NCBI GenBank assembly: GCA_944389235.1
Contig: CALXLO010000003.1
Span: forward strand, 1,223-65,222
Length of the DNA: 64,000 nt
DNA from: an uncultured Alphaproteobacteria bacterium
Lineage (GTDB): Bacteria > Pseudomonadota > Alphaproteobacteria > Rs-D84
Direction: 5' to 3'
Shown here: piece after piece, positions 17,328 to 27,805 of the stretch
Layout of the letters: the number at the start of each line of letters is the position of its first letter
Numbering within the stretch: position 1 is the first letter of the stretch
The notes under the pieces: model-generated
Told to the model about the DNA's origin: nothing
The model's database searches: none
Seen by the model: only the letters and a program-made list of their open reading frames with translations
Made by a program: the position numbers and the translations under genes

Positions 17328-18542
17328 TTACCGACGGTTTACCGCACGCAAAACTGGATTCAGCATCACAACCAATACAAATGCCAACGCAAAGAACAAA
17401 ACAATTGTTGGAACGACACCGAAATTATCCAGTATTGGCTTTAACAAAATCATTATTACGCCAGACACCCCACTGTTTATCATAGAACCAATTGAAATAA
17501 CTGTGCCGCGTTCATGCGATTTTGTGCGTTCATGAATAAAACCATTAAACACTAATTTTACCAAAGCCTGGGCAGCCGGCACAATTGTCATAATAACACA
17601 CAACACATAAACGATTGGCATATTACCTGTGGCCCAAATTGCGCCCAACGCCGCCCCAAAACCAACGAAAATCAATATGACCGACAACCACAGTGTTTTA
17701 TTATTGCCCAACCGTTCAATTGATTTATACGCAAATTTATAAAACAACATACGCGACACATTGTTTATTCCGACAATCACACCAAACAACGCCACCGGCA
17801 CCAACGCCGCAACCATAACAGGCTGCATCAACCACAGCAAAATTATAGTAAATGTTCCATACAATGCCGAATACAGCATCAGTTTTGGCAGCTCTGGATG
17901 CTTGGCGGTCATACTAACAATTTTCAAGCAATCCCGCAGTGGACTGGATTCTGGGGCAACCTTGCGTTTTACTTCTGTTATTTCTGGGATAAAGAACAGT
18001 ATTAAAAACATAATCAATGCCGCCATGGCATTTACTGTCAAAACCAAATTTTGACTGATTGCGAATAACGCGCCACCAACCAAAGTTCCAACCATTGTCC
18101 CAGCTGTGCCAATCGTATTAACTGAACCATTTTCGCGCAAGTAAGTCTTTTCTGCACCATCGCGTTTCAGCAAATCATATATGTATGCTTCTTTGGTTCC
18201 GCTGAACAGTGCGCTTGCCACGCCCAATCCAGATTCGCACAACAGCACCGCCCAAAAACCAGTTCCAAATAATAATATTGAAAAAGACAAAAACGACGCA
18301 AGCGCACCTAAAATCAATATTTTCCGCCGCGAAAAAACATCTGCCAAATACCCGCTGGGGATTTCAAACAAAAACGCAACAATGCGAAATATTCCCTGAA
18401 TCATAAAAAAATCGCCCAGTCCGACCCCTTTGTTTTGATAAATCAAAACGATAACAGGCAATATTGGCATAAACAGATGGAAAAATTCGGCCACTTTCAA
18501 AATCCATAATGCTGTTTTCGTTTCACGCGACAACATAGACAT
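17328..18542 (-). CDS. MFS transporter
   Basis: 404 aa with about 12 predicted TM helices. Has the MFS-like signature GYLADVFSRRKILILG. Confidence 0.7.
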   Translation of the reverse strand: MSMLSRETKTALWILKVAEFFHLFMPILPVIVLIYQNKGVGLGDFFMIQGIFRIVAFLFEIPSGYLADVFSRRKILILGALASFLSFSILLFGTGFWAVLLCESGLGVASALFSGTKEAYIYDLLKRDGAEKTYLRENGSVNTIGTAGTMVGTLVGGALFAISQNLVLTVNAMAALIMFLILFFIPEITEVKRKVAPESSPLRDCLKIVSMTAKHPELPKLMLYSALYGTFTIILLWLMQPVMVAALVPVALFGVIVGINNVSRMLFYKFAYKSIERLGNNKTLWLSVILIFVGFGAALGAIWATGNMPIVYVLCVIMTIVPAAQALVKLVFNGFIHERTKSHERGTVISIGSMINSGVSGVIMILLKPILDNFGVVPTIVLFFALAFVLVVMLNPVLRAVNRR

Positions 18543-18564
18543 CTTGTGGCCTTTTTATTTTTAT

Positions 18565-18638
18565 TGGTGCGGGCGAAGGGAATCGAACCCTCGTCTTCAG
18601 CTTGGGAAGCTGACGTGCTGCCATTATACCACGCCCGC
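18565..18638 (-). tRNA. tRNA-Gly (anticodon CCC)
   Basis: The reverse complement folds as a cloverleaf: acceptor GCGGGCG/CGCCCGC, U8, A14, GG in the D-loop, anticodon stem TCAGC/GCTGA with loop TTCCCAA, T-loop TTCGATT, discriminator A, CCA. Confidence 0.8.
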
Positions 18639-18697
18639 GCGTTGCGTGATTTTATAACACGCGCAAAAAAATGTCCAGTTTTTATTTATTGTGATGT

Positions 18698-19201
18698 TTA
18701 TTTTTTGAATTTTGGAAACAATAACGGTGTTCTTTTTTTATATTCGACATATTCGTCTTTGAAATCATTATACAATCTGGGTTCTTCATATTTTTTTACA
18801 TGCCATACCATATACAATATAAACACAATTGGAACAACCAACGCAGAATATGAATTAAACAAGAATGCTAATCCTATATAAAACACAAATGTACCAAATA
18901 ACATTGGATTCCGCGTGTATTTATATGGACCTTGTACCAGCAGTTTTTTAGTGCGTTCACCTAATGCGACATTAAATCCATCTGTTGGGCATCCGCGACC
19001 AATTTTTACCATGTCTATATTTGACCAAATCATAAAGAACGCGCCTATTAAGGCTAATATCCCGCCAATCACACCGACAACCAGTGAATCCACCGGCAAA
19101 ACAAAATTAACAGCAACAATATACATCAATGCCGGCACCAGCACCAAAAACATCGAAATACCGACAACATATCCAAAAATATTTTTCATAGCAATCACCA
19201 T
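18698..19201 (-). CDS. Membrane methyltransferase of the ICMT/PEMT family
   Basis: Multi-TM protein with a C-terminal GPYKYTRNPMLFG...EEPRLYNDFKDEYVEYKKRTP motif block typical of isoprenylcysteine carboxyl / phospholipid methyltransferases. Confidence 0.6.
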   Translation of the reverse strand: MVIAMKNIFGYVVGISMFLVLVPALMYIVAVNFVLPVDSLVVGVIGGILALIGAFFMIWSNIDMVKIGRGCPTDGFNVALGERTKKLLVQGPYKYTRNPMLFGTFVFYIGLAFLFNSYSALVVPIVFILYMVWHVKKYEEPRLYNDFKDEYVEYKKRTPLLFPKFKK

Positions 19202-19207
19202 AATTGG

Positions 19208-19462
19208 TTATAATATTTTTTGATTCAATTCGCGTTGTATTTTTTCCAGTTTATTTTCTGCGGCACGCAACAATTTTCTGTTTGGATTATTTTTTGCCAA
19301 TGTTTTGCGCAATTGTTCTAATTGTATTAACACCGCAACCGCACCAACATCGCGCGCACGCGAATATAACAGCCCCAACAAACTGTTTAATTCCGCCAAA
19401 CTGATTTCATGGTTTGACGCAAACTTTTCTTGCTGACGAATATATTTTTTATGTTCATTCAT
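19208..19462 (-). CDS. Small helical hypothetical protein
   Basis: 84-aa ORF with coiled-coil-like composition. No recognisable motif. Confidence 0.3.
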   Translation of the reverse strand: MNEHKKYIRQQEKFASNHEISLAELNSLLGLLYSRARDVGAVAVLIQLEQLRKTLAKNNPNRKLLRAAENKLEKIQRELNQKIL

Positions 19463-19525
19463 TGCTTGCCGTCTATATTATACAAGATAAACTAAATACG
19501 GGCTGTTTTCAAGCCCGTATCAAAT

Positions 19526-20503
19526 TTATTTCAATTTTTCGCAATCTGTCAACCACGCATCCAAAGTATCCATTTCTGTGGATTGTGTAATACCAGCATC
19601 ACACAAAGCATTATAAACATTATATAGATTATGTTTTAATGCAATTCCTGGTTTTACCACAGATTTTGCAATATCAACAACTTGTTCTGAATATAAATAG
19701 CACGGTATTTCAGATTCAAAATCTTTCATATAATCATGAACATTTCTTTCTTGTAATACAGTTGCATTTGTAAAGCCCAGCAAGAAATTTTCATTCCACA
19801 TCAATGGTTGCGCAATTAACCCCTTTAATATATCCGTAAATCTGAAACTGACCGTTGTTGGCAAATATAACAATTCAAACAGTTCGCGCCGATATGCTGT
19901 ATTTTGCGTATTAAACGGACAAACACATCCAGATTGTAAAACCAACGGTTCTTTGTCTTGGTCAAAATAACATGGTGTATTATCTGTTAATCTATAAATT
20001 GCATCAACATCTGGGTCGCCGTCTGCCAGTCCTTGCCACACACCGACATGTAAATTTTGATTTTTTATTTCATAAGATGTTTTTTTATTAATATAATTTA
20101 ATGGCAATCCCCGTGGCCAAATTTTGTGTTTCGTAAAAAACTGATATATATTTATAAAACCATCATCTGTTTTGATTAAATTAAAATTGTCATCAAATTC
20201 TGGGAACCCGAAATTATCGTATGGAATATTATCGTCATCAGTATCTATAATAATATCTGCCCCTGCACGCATAGCATATAAATATCCCAACATTTTTCTG
20301 GAATAATGATTAAACGGTAAAGTTTTTTCTAATTCAAATCCGTATGTTTTATCAGCAGATAAAAATATAACATTATCGCAATTGTAATTTTCCGGCGATT
20401 TTTTATCACCAACAACAATGACATTATAATCATTTATCCCAGAAAATTTTTTCACCGCAACAGTTGGTTCAAATATACTGGTTATAACAATGTATTTTTT
20501 CAT
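19526..20503 (-). CDS. Glycosyltransferase-like protein, resembles the DUF288 / STELLO-type GT domain
   Basis: N-terminus MKKYIVITSIFEPT...VIVVGDKKSP and an acidic DTDDDNIP (DxD-like) segment. No signal peptide. Confidence 0.45.
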   Translation of the reverse strand: MKKYIVITSIFEPTVAVKKFSGINDYNVIVVGDKKSPENYNCDNVIFLSADKTYGFELEKTLPFNHYSRKMLGYLYAMRAGADIIIDTDDDNIPYDNFGFPEFDDNFNLIKTDDGFINIYQFFTKHKIWPRGLPLNYINKKTSYEIKNQNLHVGVWQGLADGDPDVDAIYRLTDNTPCYFDQDKEPLVLQSGCVCPFNTQNTAYRRELFELLYLPTTVSFRFTDILKGLIAQPLMWNENFLLGFTNATVLQERNVHDYMKDFESEIPCYLYSEQVVDIAKSVVKPGIALKHNLYNVYNALCDAGITQSTEMDTLDAWLTDCEKLK

Positions 20504-20507
20504 TACT

Positions 20508-21518
20508 CTAACTCCATCTTGACAGTTTTAATGGGTGTATAAACAGCAAATTATCAGGCCAATTTTCCATTAAGTTTGACAGTTTATATTCATATTGTTT
20601 TGACATATCATCTGTCATATCAAAAATAGCATTGCCTGTTTGTCTGTGTTTATTCTTTTCAAATTTTAATTTATCTAATGTTAATAACATACATGTCGGC
20701 ATCGCAATTTCAACAAATACATTCATTGCTGCAAATATGCCTAATAAATTTGTAAAATCATCTATCTTATTATGCGGGACAACCAAGAAATCAGAAACTC
20801 CATACGCCAATGGATACAAAAAATCATCGTTTACCGGGCGACCGGCCCCAGAATTTATCAAACTATTCAACCGATGATTCAACCAATCTGTGTATGACCA
20901 TCCACGCAGTTTTTGATATATGAACCGATGCCAAGAATTACTATAACCACGCGGAAAGAATTTATAATAATTTGTATTATCTGGGGCAAAATATTTTTGC
21001 ATTTCAATAAAAACATTTTTATCTATATTTCTAGAACTGATGCCATGCGCGTCAAATGCACATCTGGCATAATTTATATCGGGTATAAAAGATTTGTATT
21101 CACACCCATTGCCACTTAATACCATTGACCGCAATGACATTATTGTCCACTCACTCCAATAAACTAATTCGCGATATGTTAATGCAGAAATACTGGGGAT
21201 ATAGCCTGTATTGTCATCTAAATTCAAAATTTCTGTTAAATTATATTGATTAATATTTGGATTTAATAATAAATCATCTGCTGCAAAACAGTAATGACTT
21301 GATTCATTGTTTTTATATGTACCCAGTCCTTGACGAATATAGTCATGAAACAAATATGAATTGCCGTATATTTTTGCGACATTTGATTTATGCCCTCTAT
21401 AAAAAGGCATCAAATGAAAAATTTTATCAAATCTGCCGGCATATAAAGATTCTATTCTATCTATATTTGATTCATAATTATGGTTATAAACCACAACCAA
21501 ACTAACTTTATGTTTCAT
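20508..21518 (-). CDS. Hypothetical protein, probable glycan-biosynthesis enzyme (GT-like)
   Basis: 336 aa. Co-oriented and tightly spaced (4-14 nt gaps) with the flanking GT genes. No family recognised. Confidence 0.4.
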   Translation of the reverse strand: MKHKVSLVVVYNHNYESNIDRIESLYAGRFDKIFHLMPFYRGHKSNVAKIYGNSYLFHDYIRQGLGTYKNNESSHYCFAADDLLLNPNINQYNLTEILNLDDNTGYIPSISALTYRELVYWSEWTIMSLRSMVLSGNGCEYKSFIPDINYARCAFDAHGISSRNIDKNVFIEMQKYFAPDNTNYYKFFPRGYSNSWHRFIYQKLRGWSYTDWLNHRLNSLINSGAGRPVNDDFLYPLAYGVSDFLVVPHNKIDDFTNLLGIFAAMNVFVEIAMPTCMLLTLDKLKFEKNKHRQTGNAIFDMTDDMSKQYEYKLSNLMENWPDNLLFIHPLKLSRWS

Positions 21519-21532
21519 GTAATAAAATCCTC

Positions 21533-23143
21533 TCAGACATTTTTAATGAAATTCATTATTTTATTTTTAGCAATTTTGATAGCACTGGTTTGAATTTTAT
21601 GTGTTCTTTCAACACTGCCAAAATCATAGTGTTTTGACAATTCACGCAAATCATATTTATTTACATTTTTACCTATGAGATTTGCAAAGTTTCGATTAGA
21701 CCGCAATGCTCTGAAACCAAATTTATCGTTATGTATTTTTGTCATAAATGTACCAATCATTTCAAATTCGGAAAAGCCACCATATATTAAATCATCATCA
21801 GATATCTGATTCAAAATTGCCCGCCAGAAATCTTTTTCTGATACAGAAAACCTGCCAGCAATCACAGACACCATTTCTTTCATATACGATGTATTCATCA
21901 TCATGTGTTCAACAATATATGTTGTATCCACATTACGCGGATACCCCAGCACTGCTTCCACTGTCTTGTTAAACACATCATCTTTCCAAATTCTGGAATT
22001 ATCATACAGTATCCGGTCGTTATCATCAAAAAAATCAATATGTCGCAGCATTAATGTATCTGCGTCCCAGACCAAATAATTATCAACATCACATTTATAA
22101 CAAAATGCAATTTTCAAGAACTGTTGCAGATACCAACCAATTCTGCTGGGTTTAACATTTCTGTTAATAAAATATTGTTTTATAGCATCATAATTTAATC
22201 CATCTAATAAATCTGATTCATTTATATAAACGATACCGGGCTTGTCAGGATTTTTATTTGATATAACATACAGATTACGATAATCGCAATGTTTCTTTAA
22301 TAAATCAATCGTCATATCCAGATTTTCAAAATCTTTACTGGCGACACATAAAACAACATCAAATACATGCTGTTTAATATTTGTATTTCCGCGCAGCCAT
22401 TCTATACCGCCATATTTTGGATTGTTTTTATCCCGTTGAATAATTTTTATATTATCTTTGAAATCTGGTAAATCCCAAGATTCCGGATATAAATAATTGC
22501 ATGGGATTATCAACGGATTTTTATCCAGCACATATTTATTCAAATGACTTTCATCGTGCCACAGTGCGACAACATTTTTATCTAAATCTGTTTTTATATT
22601 TTTTGAACATGCATGACACAATTTCAAATATGCGTCTGCTGTACCACCGTTCAAGCAACCCTGAACATAAAAACGCCCAGAATTATAGGGTATGTACGCT
22701 GTTGATTGGGGATTTCGGTCATAAGTAAAATCATTAATGTTTTTATTATAAAATCCCGGATGCAATCCCATTGCCAATTCATCATTTTTATCAGATGGCA
22801 GAATTTCTTGTCCAACAAAATCAACAAATTGCATATTTGCATTAAAAAAGAATATATAATCAAACTGCGCCAATTTATCTTCTTGGGTCAAGAACATATC
22901 AAACCGCATCAGTGTATCATACGGCCAGCCTAATTTATCTTGGTAAATTTTTATAACATTATTATCCGTATCGTGTTCTAATTTTTCGTTATCTGTAAAC
23001 AAAAAATAAGTCTTGGGGACATCCGGCAAAAAATATTTTTCAGCAGATTCATAAAAATCGCGCCAAAACACACCATATCTGCCCAGCGCTATATATAATA
23101 TTGCTATTTTTGTATTATTGGAAGCAGTCATAAAAAACCTCAT
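21533..23143 (-). CDS. Two-domain glycosyltransferase. N-terminal GT6 catalytic domain (ABO / alpha-1,3-Gal(NAc) transferase family, bacterial NxN variant), fused to a C-terminal ~290-aa DxD-containing domain.
   Basis: GT6 blocks match vertebrate ABO transferases. IAILYIALGRYGVFWRDFYESAEKYF...YFLFTD aligns with [26 protein letters not shown]...YYVFTD. LHPGFY...FTYDRNPQSTAYIP...GRFYVQGCLNGG...ALWHDESHLNKYVL aligns with LHPGFYGSS..FTYERRPQSQAYIP..GDFYYLGGFFGG..AVWHDESHLNKYLL. The DVD metal motif is replaced by NAN (FFFNANMQF). The C-terminal domain has WDADT and GWYLQQFLK. Confidence 0.8.
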   Translation of the reverse strand: MRFFMTASNNTKIAILYIALGRYGVFWRDFYESAEKYFLPDVPKTYFLFTDNEKLEHDTDNNVIKIYQDKLGWPYDTLMRFDMFLTQEDKLAQFDYIFFFNANMQFVDFVGQEILPSDKNDELAMGLHPGFYNKNINDFTYDRNPQSTAYIPYNSGRFYVQGCLNGGTADAYLKLCHACSKNIKTDLDKNVVALWHDESHLNKYVLDKNPLIIPCNYLYPESWDLPDFKDNIKIIQRDKNNPKYGGIEWLRGNTNIKQHVFDVVLCVASKDFENLDMTIDLLKKHCDYRNLYVISNKNPDKPGIVYINESDLLDGLNYDAIKQYFINRNVKPSRIGWYLQQFLKIAFCYKCDVDNYLVWDADTLMLRHIDFFDDNDRILYDNSRIWKDDVFNKTVEAVLGYPRNVDTTYIVEHMMMNTSYMKEMVSVIAGRFSVSEKDFWRAILNQISDDDLIYGGFSEFEMIGTFMTKIHNDKFGFRALRSNRNFANLIGKNVNKYDLRELSKHYDFGSVERTHKIQTSAIKIAKNKIMNFIKNV

Positions 23144-23190
23144 CTAAATAACAATAAAGATACTTACACAAACATGCCGAAAATTCAATA

Positions 23191-23216
23191 ACAAAAATCC
23201 CCGCACAGGGCGGGGC
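23191..23216 (-). terminator. Terminator after the LysM protein gene
   Basis: On the minus strand: CCCCGCCCTGTGCGGGG hairpin followed by ATTTTTGTTATT. Confidence 0.5.
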
Positions 23217-23220
23217 ATAG

Positions 23221-24417
23221 TTATTTTTCTATCTTACCAGACACAGGTATTTGCAATAACTGCTGGGGGAAAATCAAATCTGGATTTTCAATATTATTTT
23301 TTTCTGCGATGATGCTGAACAGTACCCCACGACGCAAAAAGTTCCGCGCAATAATCCACAAGCAATCACCACGACGAACAGTATAATATGTGTCATCATC
23401 GCCTGTCATTTCTGGCATCGTAAATGTATGTGCAACCTGGGCAACTGTGCGACCATCACCATCATGCAAACGCACCGTCAAATTATATTCACGACCCGGC
23501 ACTAAATCACCGACATCTGCCCCCAGTCCAAAATGCTTGTAATCCGATACACGCGCGACCCCCAGGTATTTATCATCCAGCGATAACGACACACGCAAAC
23601 GCGGCAACGCATCCCCGGATACAACAATTCGTCCGCTGTCTAAATAATCTATTTTTGACACGATTAAATCGTCATCTGACAACAAAGATGGTGCCTGTAA
23701 TAAAGTACTGCCATCATCTGTCATTAACAGTGATACAGAATTTTTATATCCGCGTGGTGAAATGTATATAAAAACATTTTCATTTGATTTAACATCTGGC
23801 GATGCGCCACGCAAAGAAATTGTATAATTACCTGGTTCCAGTGCACGATGTGGCGCATAAACAAATTCGCCGTTTGCATCTGTTCGCCCAGTGGCAACAA
23901 TCGCGCCATTTATTACAATAGAAATGTTTTTATCTGCCATCCAGCGTCCTGCGACAACGATTGTTCCAGCTGGTTCTATGCGCACAATATCAAATGTCGG
24001 CACAGTTATTTCGTCATTTGCATCAGACTTTGTTGCCACTGGTTGTACCACAGGTTCCGGCACAGGCGGCACAACCGCCGGCACTTGGATTGGTCGTGTT
24101 TGCACAAACATAACCCATATTGCGATTACAATAACAATAATTCCGCATAAAATCGGAAACCAATAAGACAAAATTCCGCCGCGACGACGCGTTTCACGCA
24201 CATTTGCATCTGGGGCAGGGACATTAATGTTTTGATTTTCCTGTTTCGGATTCGGGCGCGCAAAAATATTCAAAGATTTCAAAAAACGCCGCGCAAAGTT
24301 GCGTCGATTTTCCATCCATGCGTTTTGCTGGGCAACCGCGTCATTAATCAAATCATCTGTGGACCGTTTGGTTTTTCCAATAGTATTATTATTTGCCATA
24401 TTAATAATCTCCTGCAA
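23221..24417 (-). CDS. LysM peptidoglycan-binding domain protein. N-terminal cytoplasmic segment, one TM helix, a beta-rich periplasmic region, and a C-terminal LysM.
   Basis: TM helix ILSYWFPILCGIIVIVIAIWVMFV. C-terminal YTVRRGDCLWIIARNFLRRGVLFSIIAEKNNIENPDLIFPQQLLQIP is a LysM motif. Confidence 0.7.
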   Translation of the reverse strand: MQEIINMANNNTIGKTKRSTDDLINDAVAQQNAWMENRRNFARRFLKSLNIFARPNPKQENQNINVPAPDANVRETRRRGGILSYWFPILCGIIVIVIAIWVMFVQTRPIQVPAVVPPVPEPVVQPVATKSDANDEITVPTFDIVRIEPAGTIVVAGRWMADKNISIVINGAIVATGRTDANGEFVYAPHRALEPGNYTISLRGASPDVKSNENVFIYISPRGYKNSVSLLMTDDGSTLLQAPSLLSDDDLIVSKIDYLDSGRIVVSGDALPRLRVSLSLDDKYLGVARVSDYKHFGLGADVGDLVPGREYNLTVRLHDGDGRTVAQVAHTFTMPEMTGDDDTYYTVRRGDCLWIIARNFLRRGVLFSIIAEKNNIENPDLIFPQQLLQIPVSGKIEK

Positions 24418-25621: not shown

Positions 25622-26860
25622 TTAATGGCGATATATCTTTGCATTGTCGCGCCCCAACAAATCTCCTAATGTAAATTTACCTTCTTTACTATCTATAAAG
25701 TATGTCTTGGCAGACATATAACAATCTTGTATAGTGCTCTTACCTGCATCAGATGTTGAACCGCCGGGGCATGGATAGGCGGTATTATCATAACAATAAT
25801 ATCCAGCGGGGCAATCTTCATATTGCGCTGTTAATGTACGGTCTAATTCTTCTGTAAATTCAAAAACATCGTCTGCTTCGTATATTTTTCCAGCATCGCA
25901 TCCTGCTGTACATTCCCAGTGCTTAAATTTTTTACCTGCGGGTGTCCAACCTGTAATAATATCTATCACTTTTCTGTTAGTTGAGTTGGAATCATCCCCG
26001 ATATCAAATGTTTGACTTTTTGTATAACCGTTCGTATTTTTATATGTAATCTCAATCTCGTTAACCTTATACTGCGCATACAGCGTAGATGTGCCGCCTA
26101 TAAAAGCCTCTATTGTGTTGCCCTGATAGCTCTCGGATATTTTACCATCTGCATCAATGACTAAATCACCATCAGATGCTTTTGTATAATATCCTGTAAA
26201 TTCTAAATAGTTATGAGTGGGTTGTTTAAAATCGCTGCTTTCAACAGTTTTTGTACTCCAATTACTGCCATTTTTATATCCTGCTTCATATTTATAAGAA
26301 AGCTCTTTATTTATATATTTATCATAATCTGGCGCATGCGTATAAGGCATATTTTTATCTAGATTAATCGTATATGTTGCACCAGTGCAATAGATTCTGG
26401 GCGAAGTAGCCTCACAAGTATTCTTGCTACCTTCCCCCTCGCATTTGTAAGAGGCACCATTACCCACATAATGTTCGTCATAGCTGCCACATGATGCACA
26501 ACCGCTCCCGGCCCAATATTGACCTGTATCACAGGATATTTTCCAAGGACACTGGTCTCCTGTCTGGCCATCTTCTGTAAATGTTACATCAGGAAAATTG
26601 TTAGGTTGTGAACAATCGTATTTTTCACGATTATAACAATAGCTACCTATGGGACAAGTTTCACAATAGGTTATCATAAATTCATACCCATTGGGACACC
26701 CTTTGTCTTTATCATTACACAGGTCGTCATCAGTAATTTCCCGACAAATACCCTCACCATCAGCAGGAGCTCTATCAAAACAACATATATCTATCCTCTC
26801 GGCCATACAATCAGTTATACAACCAAAAACAAACAGAGCAACAAATAGTATTTTTTTCAT
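25622..26860 (-). CDS. Secreted cysteine-rich protein containing Listeria/Bacteroides (InlB B-type) repeats
   Basis: Signal peptide MKKILFVALFVFGCITDCMA. Cys-rich modules CPNGYEFMITYCETCPIGSYCY and CPAGYYCYDNTAYPCPGG. Two repeats end in TLYAQY / TLTAQY with a GWTPAGKKFKHWE core, which is the List_Bact repeat pattern. Confidence 0.6.
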   Translation of the reverse strand: MKKILFVALFVFGCITDCMAERIDICCFDRAPADGEGICREITDDDLCNDKDKGCPNGYEFMITYCETCPIGSYCYNREKYDCSQPNNFPDVTFTEDGQTGDQCPWKISCDTGQYWAGSGCASCGSYDEHYVGNGASYKCEGEGSKNTCEATSPRIYCTGATYTINLDKNMPYTHAPDYDKYINKELSYKYEAGYKNGSNWSTKTVESSDFKQPTHNYLEFTGYYTKASDGDLVIDADGKISESYQGNTIEAFIGGTSTLYAQYKVNEIEITYKNTNGYTKSQTFDIGDDSNSTNRKVIDIITGWTPAGKKFKHWECTAGCDAGKIYEADDVFEFTEELDRTLTAQYEDCPAGYYCYDNTAYPCPGGSTSDAGKSTIQDCYMSAKTYFIDSKEGKFTLGDLLGRDNAKIYRH

Positions 26861-26881
26861 CTCTCTAACTAATCCCAATAA

Positions 26882-27340
26882 CTATCGTTGATATTGTTTG
26901 TTTATTGTCCAGCCGTTTTGTACATACCACAAGCTATCTTCGGGCACCTTTGACGCTTCACCCAACATAAAATTAAAATCACCACGCCCCCGCATCTTGG
27001 AAGAATAATTTATAACTTTTTGAAACACCAGTTCACGATTAATAGATATTGCACTTTCTCGCCAATCTGACCAATCACCTTGTGTATATAAATAAACAGC
27101 TTGTATATCTGGATTTTCAACATAATATTGTATAATATCACTGACTACAAAATCATCTCCTTGCATTCTACCTAAAACATGTACATTATTTGCATCAAAT
27201 AATATATCTACTTCTGTTTTTACCGGTTTAGGCTCCGTGGGGGCAACTTTTTCACATGACGATACAACACTGGCACCCGCCAAACCCAGAATTGGTAAAA
27301 CATGTTTCATTTTATATGGAATAATTTTTTTGAATTTCAT
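26882..27340 (-). CDS. Lipoprotein, tandem paralog 1
   Basis: MKFKKIIPYKMKHVLPILGLAGASVVSSC lipobox. C-terminus WYVQNGWTINKQYQR. Confidence 0.55.
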   Translation of the reverse strand: MKFKKIIPYKMKHVLPILGLAGASVVSSCEKVAPTEPKPVKTEVDILFDANNVHVLGRMQGDDFVVSDIIQYYVENPDIQAVYLYTQGDWSDWRESAISINRELVFQKVINYSSKMRGRGDFNFMLGEASKVPEDSLWYVQNGWTINKQYQR

Positions 27341-27358: not shown

Positions 27359-27805
27359 TTAACGCTGTTGTTGATTTAATGTCCAACCATGTTTAACAAA
27401 CCATGTGCTGTCATCTGGCACTTTGGATGCTTCACCTGGCATAAACGAGAAATTGCCCCGCCCAAACACTTTTGGTGAATAATTTATTGCTGGTTCCAAA
27501 AATTGATTTCTTAATCTTTGAATATCTGATGAAGTACAAAAAATCCAAGAACCATAATCTGCATTCAGGTAAATTGTGTCTATATATTCTTGGTCTGCAA
27601 ACGATTGAATAAATGGTAATAATGTCGGTAAATATTTTTCAAAATTTTTACCATTGCTATGCAATATATACTCAACTGATGTTGTCGGCACATCAGGTTC
27701 CGTTGGACCGACTTTTTCACATGACGATACAACACCAAGCCCCGCCACGCCCAAAATTGGCAAGATACTCTTTAACTTATACGGCAATATTTTTTTGAAC
27801 TGCAT
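27359..27805 (-). CDS. Lipoprotein, tandem paralog 2
   Basis: MQFKKILPYKLKSILPILGVAGLGVVSSC. The N- and C-termini (WFVKHGWTLNQQQR) are near-identical to paralog 1, with colinear similarity throughout. Confidence 0.55.
   Translation of the reverse strand: MQFKKILPYKLKSILPILGVAGLGVVSSCEKVGPTEPDVPTTSVEYILHSNGKNFEKYLPTLLPFIQSFADQEYIDTIYLNADYGSWIFCTSSDIQRLRNQFLEPAINYSPKVFGRGNFSFMPGEASKVPDDSTWFVKHGWTLNQQQR

Follow-up and report, generated by a model that had tools for sequence, protein, structure and literature searches.

A lineage-specific three-gene glycosylation cassette set among resident genes of an uncultured gut alphaproteobacterium

A run of co-oriented genes beside a tRNA gene, several of them resembling glycosyltransferases, raises the question of which genes were acquired, whether the tRNA gene had a part in their arrival, and what kind of glycan they might build. 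We examined such a locus in a window of 64 kb (the whole stretch of DNA that was analysed). Its source is an uncultured alphaproteobacterium that lives in animal guts and belongs to the Candidatus Enterousia clade (order Rs-D84; genomes of ~0.9 Mb). A sequence-only reading had described six co-oriented genes next to tRNA-Gly(CCC), three of them tightly packed and glycosyltransferase-like, and this layout was borne out by six minus-strand ORFs at 18.7-24.4 kb with glycosylation-gene spacings of 14 nt and 4 nt. The same reading placed the genes downstream of the tRNA gene; they do adjoin it, but in the direction of transcription they lie upstream, on its 5' side. The features are as follows, all on the minus strand.

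18565..18638, minus strand: tRNA-Gly(CCC), adjoining the locus (ARAGORN and Rfam)
18698..19201, minus strand: PEMT/ICMT-family membrane methyltransferase, 167 aa, resident (Pfam PEMT, 49 bits)
19208..19462, minus strand: h84, an 84-aa helical protein, resident (no Pfam or NCBIfam match)
19495..19521, minus strand: downstream insert boundary, a 10-bp hairpin (terminator scan and sequence)
19526..20503, minus strand: "STELLO-like" protein, 325 aa, a GT75 mutase homologue by sequence (Pfam STELLO, 26.9 bits)
20508..21518, minus strand: protein of an unnamed family, 336 aa, predicted GT-A fold (no Pfam or NCBIfam match)
21533..23143, minus strand: GT6 and DUF6492 fusion, putatively bifunctional (Pfam Glyco_transf_6, 135 bits; DUF6492, 27.9 bits)
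23199..23215, minus strand: upstream insert boundary, a GC-rich hairpin with a T-run (terminator scan and sequence)
23221..24417, minus strand: core gene beside the insert, encoding a LysM-domain membrane protein (Pfam LysM, 37 bits)

The AT-richness ascribed to the region was found at 19-23 kb, where GC is 0.31-0.35 compared to ~0.42 in the flanks, but it does not reach the LysM gene (0.432). The three glycosylation genes are the lowest-GC ORFs among the 61 in the window (0.314-0.320; z -3.2 to -3.4). PEMT is also poor in GC (0.347), a trait common to the orthologous region in relatives, where h84 is GC-poor too. Taken alone, low GC is weak evidence of transfer, since surface-glycan genes often show it. 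From the comparison with 80 related species, the supposed island proved to be a composite in which only the three glycosylation genes (19526-23143; insert ~19495-23200) are lineage-specific, with LysM, h84 and PEMT outside the acquisition. The backbone of pfkA, LysM, tRNA-Gly and gdhA is kept in the 80 species, and LysM adjoins pfkA in every one of them (63-74% identity). h84 directly follows LysM in ~20 related species (30-50% identity; tblastn), with the LysM stop codon overlapping the h84 start codon in L028 and L013, while PEMT is 74-84% identical and in the same position in L012, L013, L016, L023, L024, L028 and L046. h84 and PEMT are older residents, and the nearest relatives keep a translationally coupled LysM-h84-PEMT operon that the insert splits.

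Two hairpin terminators bracket the three glycosylation genes. The first lies directly 3' of the LysM stop codon and reads CCCCGC-CCTGT-GCGGGG followed by ATTTTTGTT; the second lies directly 3' of the STELLO-like stop codon, just before the h84 start. DNA homology with the closest relatives ends at ~23240 and picks up again at ~19280 (about 19277-19183). The synteny comparison that had been proposed as a check agreed with the idea of a foreign block, which is absent from the syntenic site in 80/80 species and present in 10/10 conspecific contigs at 97-100% identity. None of the four cassette domains was detected among the 80 (tblastn E<=1e-5; profile HMMs E<=1e-3) in a search of the syntenic site and its flanks, ~+/-10 kb per related genome and 1.36 Mb in total; for the rest of those genomes, it is the protein-database searches that speak, indirectly, against a divergent copy. 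Among 5.8 billion proteins, no homologue of the cassette proteins exceeding 66% identity was found outside the species.

We then considered what the three proteins might do. It had been suggested that the glycosyltransferase families are eukaryote-like, which was overstated: the GT6 domain is nearest to a Bacteroides enzyme, and the STELLO-like family counts >7,500 bacterial members (55-66% identity to the window protein; mean column identity 66%). The STELLO-like protein scores just below the Pfam gathering score of 27.8, while its close homologues reach 35-52 bits (PF03385, formerly DUF288), above that score. Its resemblance to plant STELLO1/2 lies in the last ~100 residues, which align to no more of the 387-position profile than positions 1-105. 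Unlike the soluble bacterial protein, those of plants reside in the Golgi membrane (PMC4906169).

A second homology was found to MtdL (PDB 7YUA/7XPR; E 3e-18 with a single sequence, 3.6e-29 with a profile), extending over residues 60-278. MtdL/Hyg20 and the plant UDP-arabinopyranose mutases constitute CAZy GT75, the Mn-dependent NDP-pyranose mutases (PMC9937993). The MtdL-equivalent residues D89-D90-D91-N92 (the DDDN motif), R131, D165, Q200, R221, D224, R253 and H256 are kept, so that equivalents of MtdL Arg159 (nucleophile), Asp260 (base), Asp195, Gln229, Arg257, Arg289 and His292 are all present. On these alignments the protein is a GT75 NDP-pyranose mutase homologue with the catalytic Arg and Asp conserved, and we propose that it either acts as a mutase on a donor sugar or glycosylates itself. 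One cassette gene thus looks like an unrecognised enzyme that reshapes a donor sugar rather than one that transfers it. Mutase activity is not assured, since an invariant Gln (Q251) occupies the position of the Mn ligand His287 and two sugar or base contacts differ (Asp87 is Y67 and Ser86 is H66). Also unlike GT75 enzymes, the protein has no Pfam RGP match, Pfam files its family under STELLO, and its gene belongs to polysaccharide loci, not to antibiotic clusters; the mutase role is a predicted one.

The annotated alternative, by which this protein would transfer sugars like any common glycosyltransferase instead of acting as a nucleotide-sugar mutase, giving the cassette four transferases, has perhaps one chance in three. 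Both Pfam and NCBI label the family "STELLO glycosyltransferase", the protein has a GT-A DxD core, GT75 enzymes also glycosylate (on their own arginine), and the substituted Mn ligand and contacts would suit a transferase. Against this, the mutase nucleophile Arg, base Asp, helper Asp and phosphate-binding Arg are invariant in the family, and the STELLO-like proteins retain 58-66% identity across phyla compared to 27-41% for the partner protein in the same genomes; such high conservation usually marks enzymes of donor synthesis and not acceptor-specific transferases.

That partner is the 336-aa protein, whose gene lies immediately upstream of that for the STELLO-like protein in L094, L095 and L176. 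Of 54 metagenome loci, at least 23 (about half) show the pairing, and the two families are adjacent on the A. brasilense Sp7 plasmid p5. The remaining STELLO-like loci are polysaccharide loci, judged by their GT4, GT2, Wzy-like and DegT genes. D81-D82 is invariant among the 58 homologues of the 336-aa family. The AF2 model (pLDDT 85.6, pTM 0.86) was matched by Foldseek to GT-A enzymes, namely B3GNT2 (E 5e-4, TM 0.41), GNPTAB, GfsA and K4CP, and on these fold matches, weak at TM ~0.41, we predict a putative GT-A-fold glycosyltransferase.

The fusion protein measures 536 aa from the first ATG, or 532 aa from the ATG at 23131 that the conspecific gene calls use. It joins a GT6 domain (~residues 12-252) to a DxD GT-A domain of the DUF6492 family (~245-536). 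The GT6 domain scores 307 bits against NCBIfam NF041524 in addition to its Pfam match, and it is more similar to BoGT6a of Bacteroides ovatus (PDB 4AYJ/4AYL/4CJ8; ~55% of 240 residues identical, and E 4e-68 against 4AYJ) than to the human ABO enzymes (~1e-31). It carries N101-A102-N103 in place of DXD, the catalytic E198 (in WHDES) and the acceptor residues H128, G130, T140, Y159 and W195, features shared with BoGT6a, which is likewise cytoplasmic, without a membrane anchor and of gut-bacterial origin. The domain belongs to the large bacterial metal-independent branch, and was assigned as a BoGT6a-like retaining enzyme of alpha-1,3-Gal/GalNAc type, NXN class, in a Q-G-C-triad subclade. WbnI of E. 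coli O86 and BgtA of Helicobacter mustelae are further bacterial metal-independent GT6 enzymes. At the triad that determines the donor, Q161-G162-C163 stands where BoGT6a has A-G-G, and at the A7 position Gln takes the place of Ile; a Q-G-C triad does not reveal which donor is used. The cassette GT6, whose activity is predicted, also differs in its fused second GT-A domain and in having no GT11 partner.

The DUF6492 match lies above the gathering score of 22.9, and the DxD motif is invariant. Its AF2 model (pLDDT 94.9) was best matched by the Stealth hexose-1-phosphate transferases M. tuberculosis CpsY (PDB 8J2N) and the GlcNAc-1-phosphotransferase GNPTAB (PDB 7S6N) (Foldseek; E 1e-8, TM 0.53-0.58), and after them by GT6 enzymes. 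On the model, the domain is a DxD GT-A with a Stealth/GT6-like fold. No sequence-level match to a solved structure and no Stealth Pfam motif was found for it, and because GT6 and GT8 retaining transferases match almost equally well, phosphotransferase chemistry is no more than a possibility. GT6-DUF6492 fusions elsewhere occur in small low-GC glycosyltransferase operons among housekeeping genes, also without export genes, and a GT11 accompanies the same fusion in 2/5 other contig contexts recovered.

It had also been suggested that the locus serves host-glycan mimicry or modification. In the specific form of mimicry, which we regard as unlikely though possible, GT6 would complete an ABO-like (A, B or alpha-Gal) epitope on a fucosylated Gal acceptor for display to the host. 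BoGT6a is a proven A-antigen synthase, the acceptor contacts that make room for a 2'-fucose (H128, G130 and, in place of a Trp, Q236) follow the GTA/BoGT6a pattern, GT11 fucosyltransferases occur alongside close homologues as well as the fusion, and the organism is a gut resident. Counting against blood-group mimicry, neither the cassette nor the rest of the window has a GT11 or any other fucosyltransferase. The Q-G-C triad is also neither A type (L/A-G-G) nor B type (M-G-A), and its subclade has no characterised enzyme. The partners of the GT6 domain are instead a mutase-like enzyme and a pair of uncharacterised GT-A domains, a combination that suggests a non-mammalian glycan, possibly with a furanose or phosphodiester linkage.

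The reading that we favour, with moderate confidence, is a horizontally acquired, cytoplasmic cassette for surface-glycan decoration. It encodes four catalytic domains (GT6, the DUF6492 GT-A, the 336-aa GT-A and the GT75/STELLO-superfamily enzyme), and no signal peptide or credible membrane helix was found in its three proteins. As to donors, acceptor, order of steps and surface location, we infer the following scheme. The GT75/STELLO-superfamily enzyme would convert an NDP-pyranose to an NDP-furanose or, alternatively, prime itself on an arginine; the adjacent 336-aa partner would transfer the sugar so supplied; and the fusion protein would add two more residues, the final one an alpha-linked Gal-type cap. 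Assembly may take place at the cytoplasmic face on a lipid-linked or lipid A-core-type acceptor, with flipping and export by machinery encoded elsewhere and a species-specific surface-glycan decoration as the end product. Export machinery located elsewhere would explain why the locus has no wzx/wzy or ABC genes. The earlier reading was right to set the locus apart from standard O-antigen loci: neither the region nor the Pfam families of the remaining window include wzx/wzy, wza, ABC-transporter or sugar-nucleotide genes, and the 64 kb showed no initiating phosphoglycosyltransferase, flippase or ligase. Glycosyltransferase islets of LOS or outer-core type are known from host-associated Gram-negatives such as Haemophilus, Neisseria and Helicobacter. 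These too are small, GC-poor operons of soluble glycosyltransferases that are lineage-specific, sit among housekeeping genes and carry neither wzx/wzy nor ABC export genes; the cassette differs in its mutase-like enzyme, and no phase-variation repeats were seen.

The observations on synteny support horizontal acquisition of the 3.7-kb three-gene cassette between LysM and h84 in one species, and acquiring such a sugar-gene block is an ordinary kind of event. The earlier proposal of transfer therefore stands for the three glycosylation genes, which are absent in 80 relatives and split an operon, but not for LysM, h84 and PEMT. A point against transfer is that no mobility genes, repeats or identifiable donor were found for the cassette. 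It seems improbable that the block is instead an ancient surface-glycan locus passed down vertically, which the other sampled species have lost and whose GC fell under relaxed or diversifying selection. Such a history would fit the fixation of the block in all conspecific contigs without mobility genes or repeats, the GC-poor PEMT/h84 region of relatives and the variability of the LysM-tRNA gap, a variable spot genus-wide. It requires independent loss in 80/80 species, the closest included, with exact restoration of the LysM/h84 start-stop overlap, and the nearest homologues of the parts, at <=66% identity, lie in unrelated contexts and organisms.

A classical tRNA-targeted integrative island, which a nearby tRNA-Gly, a composition shift and a block confined to this species would bring to mind, is scarcely credible and already contradicted: there is no integrase or recombinase ORF, the direct repeat of the tRNA-Gly 3' end that the proposed check would seek near 23.2-24.5 kb occurs nowhere in the 64 kb, the insert lies 857 nt away on the 5' side with two resident genes between, plasmid matches number 0, and phage matches are only 63-71-nt GT6 coding stretches against cyanophage genes. 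The adjacency of tRNA-Gly(CCC) had been taken, with the composition shift, as a hint of horizontal acquisition, but the tRNA gene is an incidental neighbour and not the integration site of the cassette; its 5' side faces the cassette and its 3' end an MFS gene, and its orientation varies among relatives.

Six co-oriented minus-strand ORFs (18698-24417) lie at higher coordinates than tRNA-Gly(CCC), as the sequence-only reading had described. On one side the locus adjoins an MFS transporter gene and gdhA, and on the other it adjoins pfkA, which is encoded on the opposite strand. Its features are as follows.

Features of the tRNA-Gly/LysM locus
18565-18638, minus strand: tRNA-Gly(CCC), called by ARAGORN and Rfam
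18698-19201, minus strand: PEMT/ICMT-family methyltransferase ORF (PEMT), 167 aa, 49 bits
19208-19462, minus strand: 84-aa ORF (h84), no family match
19526-20503, minus strand: STELLO-like ORF, 325 aa, Pfam STELLO 26.9 bits (cut-off 27.8)
20508-21518, minus strand: 336-aa ORF, no family match
21533-23143, minus strand: GT6-DUF6492 fusion ORF, 536 aa, Glyco_transf_6 135 bits, NCBIfam family-6 307 bits, DUF6492 27.9 bits
23221-24417, minus strand: LysM ORF, 398 aa, LysM

The three glycosylation genes in the middle (the cassette) are separated by only 14 nt and 4 nt. It was noted that GC content falls to 0.31-0.35 at 19-23 kb compared to ~0.42 elsewhere, and that these three genes have the lowest GC of the 61 ORFs in the window (0.314-0.320; z ~-3.3). 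PEMT has a GC content of 0.347 and LysM a normal 0.432, so the AT-richness proposed for the whole region holds for the 19-23 kb dip but does not extend to LysM. The remainder of the window consists of housekeeping genes, including DnaK, SecA, DnaE, ThyA, RpsA, RuvB, ArgRS, ribosomal proteins and the rpsP-rimM-trmD-rplS cluster, and Rfam detected two tRNAs in the window and no further RNA element.

The conservation of this block was compared within the species and among its relatives. An exact-sequence search with GdhA recovered 10 conspecific contigs from different metagenomes as well as the MAG GCA_964329355.1; exact-sequence matches were found neither for the GT6 fusion nor for pfkA. The three-gene block was present in all 10 conspecific contigs in identical order, with 97-100% protein identity. 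Scanning for the LysM protein in one genome per species yielded 80 related loci, with ~20 kb covered per genome. Every one of them belongs to an uncultured alphaproteobacterium of the gut, under the label Candidatus Enterousia or as an "uncultured Rickettsiales" UMGS bin, and one locus lies on a circular chromosome of 958 kb. Enterousia (order Rs-D84) has been described as a group of gut bacteria with reduced genomes of ~0.75-1.0 Mb, and LPS or surface glycans are not treated in that description. The pfkA/LysM/tRNA-Gly/gdhA backbone was kept across the 80 species, and the GT6 fusion, the 336-aa gene and the STELLO-like gene were found in none of them (tblastn, E<=1e-5, ~20 kb per genome). Profile HMMs for the four cassette domains likewise gave no match at E<=1e-3 in 1.36 Mb from these species. 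By tblastn, h84 was located directly 3' of LysM in ~20 species, seven of which also carry PEMT (74-84% identity), among them L013, L016, L024 and L028, which belong to the closest relatives by gdhA and pfkA identity. The horizontal acquisition proposed earlier is therefore real and lineage-specific, but it covers three genes of bacterial origin and not six; LysM, h84 and PEMT are resident.

DNA homology to the relatives runs from pfkA and LysM to ~23240 and resumes only at ~19280-19180, inside h84/PEMT. A GC-rich hairpin with a T-run lies directly 3' of the LysM stop codon (23215-23199), and a second hairpin lies 3' of the STELLO-like stop codon (19521-19495). The homology gap and the two hairpins together define an acquired unit of ~3.7 kb (19495-23200) with three genes. 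In L028 and L013 the LysM stop and h84 start codons overlap (TAATG and ATGA), and LysM-h84-PEMT is thus a translationally coupled operon in these relatives. We determined that the cassette insertion split this resident operon. The low GC of h84 and PEMT in the window is no mark of recent transfer, because the orthologous stretch of the relatives is GC-poor too.

In 69 species, LysM and tRNA-Gly were between 42 nt and 4.9 kb apart. This gap was noted to be a variable spot throughout the genus (L011-L090), with cargo unrelated between species: radical SAM gene pairs (with a 576-aa unknown protein), an HNH nuclease, a phosphoglucomutase, a hexapeptide transferase, and proteins of 600-926 aa lacking a Pfam match. 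The cargo of the relatives was accordingly rejected as a set of glycosylation genes.

Adjacency to the tRNA had been read as a sign of horizontal acquisition, but the acquisition was not tRNA-mediated. The 3' end of the tRNA points to the MFS gene, and the cassette is separated from its 5' side by 857 nt that include PEMT and h84. No integrase or recombinase was found among the ORFs and Pfam matches at 15-28 kb. The tRNA-Gly 3' end, whose direct repeat had been proposed as a check (searched as 26 nt and 16 nt), did not recur anywhere else in the 64 kb at <=3 mismatches, and direct and inverted repeats at 17-26 kb were limited to short chance matches, none of them at the cassette boundaries or the tRNA. 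A tRNA-targeted integrative island was rejected on these grounds, and the tRNA is incidental. A mobile-element origin was likewise rejected, as no plasmid DNA matched the cassette and the phage DNA matches were confined to GT6 coding stretches of 63-71 nt in cyanophage genes. Considered as an island, the locus is an ordinary small glycosyltransferase cassette gained by one host-associated species.

The orientation of tRNA-Gly was also noted to vary among lineages, the window copy being inverted compared to most relatives. An MFS gene lies 22 nt from the tRNA-Gly 3' end only in the window species and two others (94% protein identity; window 17328-18638, L041 12063-13534, L053 4687-6158). DNA identity to these two loci is 87% on the tRNA-MFS-gdhA side compared to 74% over pfkA-LysM. 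This contrast, together with the shared MFS/tRNA arrangement, suggests a mosaic origin through recombination between lineages.

We then considered the enzymes themselves. The fusion consists of a GT6 domain (residues 12-252) and a C-terminal DUF6492 domain (residues 245-536). The former scored 135.3 bits against Pfam PF03414 (cut-off 25) and 307.1 bits against NCBIfam NF041524 (cut-off 250). Its sequence places it in CAZy family GT6, within the bacterial metal-independent branch, whose hallmark is the replacement of the DXD motif by N101-A102-N103, equivalent to N95-A96-N97 of BoGT6a, the A-antigen synthase of Bacteroides ovatus. The W195-H196-D197-E198 motif is present, with catalytic E198 corresponding to BoGT6a E192 and to E303 of the human A transferase GTA, and the acceptor contacts described for BoGT6a are kept (H128, G130, T140, Y159 and W195). 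The eukaryote-like character earlier attributed to these genes was contradicted by the comparison: the domain matched BoGT6a at E 4e-68 (~55% identity) compared to ~1e-31 for the human ABO transferases, and among the matches listed all GT6 homologues with a source name were bacterial. Many of the listed homologues were fused to GT11, GT10, GT8, GT2 or GT32 domains.

The donor-determining positions of this family are L266/G268 in GTA, M266/A268 in the human B transferase GTB, and A155/G157 in BoGT6a. The window domain carries Q161-G162-C163 at this triad, which reads L-G-G in GTA, M-G-A in GTB and A-G-G in BoGT6a. The Q-G-C signature was found in 13 of 120 GT6 homologues, a subclade that is uncharacterised throughout and takes in every full-length fusion homologue alignable at the triad.

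For the DUF6492 domain (PF20102; 27.9 bits, gathering threshold 22.9), 1,592 representative homologues were found, most of them proteins of ~300 aa that consist of this domain alone, and its W-D-x-D-T motif is invariant; elsewhere it is fused to GT6 in reverse order, to GT11 and GT2, or to GT4. A sequence search against solved structures in the PDB gave no link. Its AlphaFold model (pLDDT 94.9) was matched best by Foldseek to the Stealth hexose-1-phosphate transferases CpsY and GNPTAB (E 1e-8, TM 0.53-0.58), followed by GT6 enzymes and glycogenin. No Stealth Pfam match (CR1-CR4) appeared at E<=0.1, so the likeness is one of fold only. We read the domain as a probable GT-A enzyme with a DxD motif, acting either as a retaining transferase or as a phosphotransferase. 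Literature searches on DUF6492 returned nothing relevant.

Full-length fusions at 58-62% identity were found in only five other protein clusters. Elsewhere the fusion sits in small low-GC glycosyltransferase operons with GT2, hexapeptide acetyltransferase, GT32 and RgpF genes, and in two of these (contigs L091 and L178) a GT11 gene adjoins it. The 336-aa and STELLO-like families were absent from fusion loci L091-L093 by profile search, and the gene calls of L177 and L178 list no STELLO match. Several minor features of these loci were also recorded. RNase J and YbaK, both housekeeping genes, flank the operon in L091 (6726-11587) and L092, and RNase E/G is found upstream of it in L093; export genes were not found in the operons of L091, L177, L178 and L093. 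Two in-frame ATGs 12 nt apart mark the start of the window fusion (23131-23143). Because conspecific gene calls take the second (532 aa), the 536-aa ORF is probably four residues too long at its N-terminus.

The 336-aa protein had no Pfam, NCBIfam or PDB sequence match. Its family comprises 58 homologues in which D81-D82 is invariant. All significant Foldseek matches of its model (pLDDT 85.6, pTM 0.86) were GT-A folds, with B3GNT2/GT31 the best (E 5e-4, TM 0.41) and GNPTAB, the fungal galactofuranosyltransferase GfsA and K4CP among the others. On this modest fold evidence, the protein is predicted to be a transferase with a GT-A fold, and its family is unnamed. Whether the three uncharacterised families share an origin was examined with hhalign, and the idea was rejected, as no significant relation was obtained; the sole hint was a 33-column alignment of a helix and the DxD strand at 2% probability.

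The STELLO-like protein has a family of >7,500 bacterial homologues, with identities of 55-66% and many members from Bacteroidota; the mean column identity across 30 aligned members is 66%. Its Pfam STELLO match (PF03385) covers the last ~100 residues, at profile positions 1-105 of 387, and lies just below the gathering threshold (26.9 against 27.8 bits); homologues at 56-66% identity scored 35.6-51.9. The PDB matches (7YUA, 7XPR, 7XPU and 8HL8) are all MtdL, the first GT75 Mn-dependent NDP-pyranose mutase with a solved structure (PMC9937993), and 7YUA/7XPR were matched at E 3.2e-18 by the single sequence and at 3.6e-29 by the family profile. The published functional residues of MtdL were carried to the window protein through sequence alignment.

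MtdL functional residues and their equivalents in the STELLO-like protein
D109-D110-D111-N112, DXD motif: D89-D90-D91-N92, conserved
R159, nucleophile: R131, conserved
D195, helper Asp: D165, conserved
Q229, ligand contact: Q200, conserved
R257, phosphate binding: R221, conserved
D260, base: D224, conserved
R289, ligand contact: R253, conserved
H292, ligand contact: H256, conserved
H287, Mn ligand: Q251, changed (Gln invariant in the family)
D87, sugar contact: Y67, changed
S86, base contact: H66, changed

All conserved positions are invariant in the 30-member alignment. The 336-aa and STELLO-like genes are adjacent and co-directional on contigs L094 and L095, adjacent on plasmid p5 of Azospirillum brasilense Sp7 (L176), and adjacent in at least 23 of the 54 metagenome loci having enough upstream sequence. 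Other STELLO-like loci contain GT4-like, GT2, Wzy-like, DegT and HAD genes, which identifies them as polysaccharide loci. Identity to the window proteins in L094/L095 was 61-66% for the STELLO-like protein compared to 40-41% for its partner, and in A. brasilense 40% compared to 27%. Given the conserved mutase residues and this higher conservation, the most economical reading is that of a predicted donor-sugar mutase converting pyranose to furanose, a reading that stays uncertain because Gln replaces the Mn-ligand His. Searches of the literature on bacterial STELLO/DUF288 proteins returned nothing relevant.

On p5 (NZ_CP012919.1, 71219-75128), glycosyltransferase, methyltransferase, 336-aa-family and STELLO-family genes stand in a row, and the order of the last three is shared with metagenome locus L094. 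The A. brasilense Sp7 homologue of the STELLO-like protein is AMK58_RS30180. STELLO-like homologues (32-43% identity) also occur in cyanophages, with Synechococcus phages S-T4, Sf-CH5 and Sf-CH8 among the named records, and in a 735-kb uncultured phage (LR756501.1, 311620-312585); GT6 genes are likewise found in Synechococcus phages.

The cassette is chimeric and joins two modules that occur apart at other loci, the fusion of GT6 with DUF6492 and the pair of 336-aa and STELLO-like genes. We tentatively put forward a broader proposal, which we consider somewhat unlikely as it stands: that the bacterial "STELLO glycosyltransferase family" (mostly Bacteroidota and Proteobacteria) consists of FAD-independent GT75-type pyranose-furanose mutases, forming with the upstream 336-aa family a portable two-gene module for making and transferring a furanose. 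If true, the module would give bacteria a widespread but hitherto unrecognised way of making furanosyl sugars alongside the flavoenzyme UGM, and would here be joined to the fusion in a chimeric cassette. Confirmation of the mutase reading would change thousands of annotations and make a new source of furanosyl donors for bacterial polysaccharides testable, with the A. brasilense p5 gene pair as a culturable, tractable model. The cassette exposes three large bacterial enzyme families, each without a characterised member.

The three cassette proteins have no signal peptide or credible membrane helix, and their chemistry is therefore expected to be cytoplasmic. The absence of export partners noted earlier was confirmed: no polysaccharide export genes, whether wzx/wzy, wza or ABC transporter, and no sugar-nucleotide genes were seen within +/-10 kb or among the best 25 of 74 Pfam families of the window. 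Nor were genes found over the same scope for an initiating phosphoglycosyltransferase, for a transporter of the flippase or ABC kind, or for a polymerase or ligase, in agreement with the view that this is not a standard Wzx/Wzy- or ABC-dependent O-antigen locus. In the pathway that we propose, the GT75-like enzyme would prepare an unusual NDP-sugar, which the 336-aa GT-A protein would transfer; the two fusion domains would add two residues, with an alpha-linked Gal-type sugar last. Assembly of the oligosaccharide would take place on an acceptor of the lipid-linked or lipid A-core type, and export would depend on machinery encoded at other sites, which would explain the missing export genes.

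The BoGT6a-type acceptor pocket makes the host-glycan mimicry suggested earlier possible in a blood-group-like form, but gene content does not support it, because no GT11, the partner that would supply an H-type (Fuc-alpha-1,2-Gal) acceptor, was found in the cassette or among the best 25 of 74 Pfam families of the window, and A- or B-type donor specificity cannot be read from the Q-G-C triad. Even with its small genome (~0.9 Mb) and minimal metabolism, this Enterousia species has acquired and fixed four glycan-building domains, which argues for strong surface selection in the gut, whether by host immunity, phages or neighbouring bacteria.

Beyond pfkA, it was noted that a 418-aa Cys-rich protein with a signal peptide is encoded on the minus strand (25622-26878). 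Among conspecific contigs this protein is hypervariable (31-89% identity, compared to 99-100% for pfkA and LysM), and the 80 related species yielded one weak match, at 34% identity in L028. Together with the next two small genes (26882-27340 and 27359-27805), the 418-aa gene forms a second low-GC patch with a GC content of 0.35-0.38.
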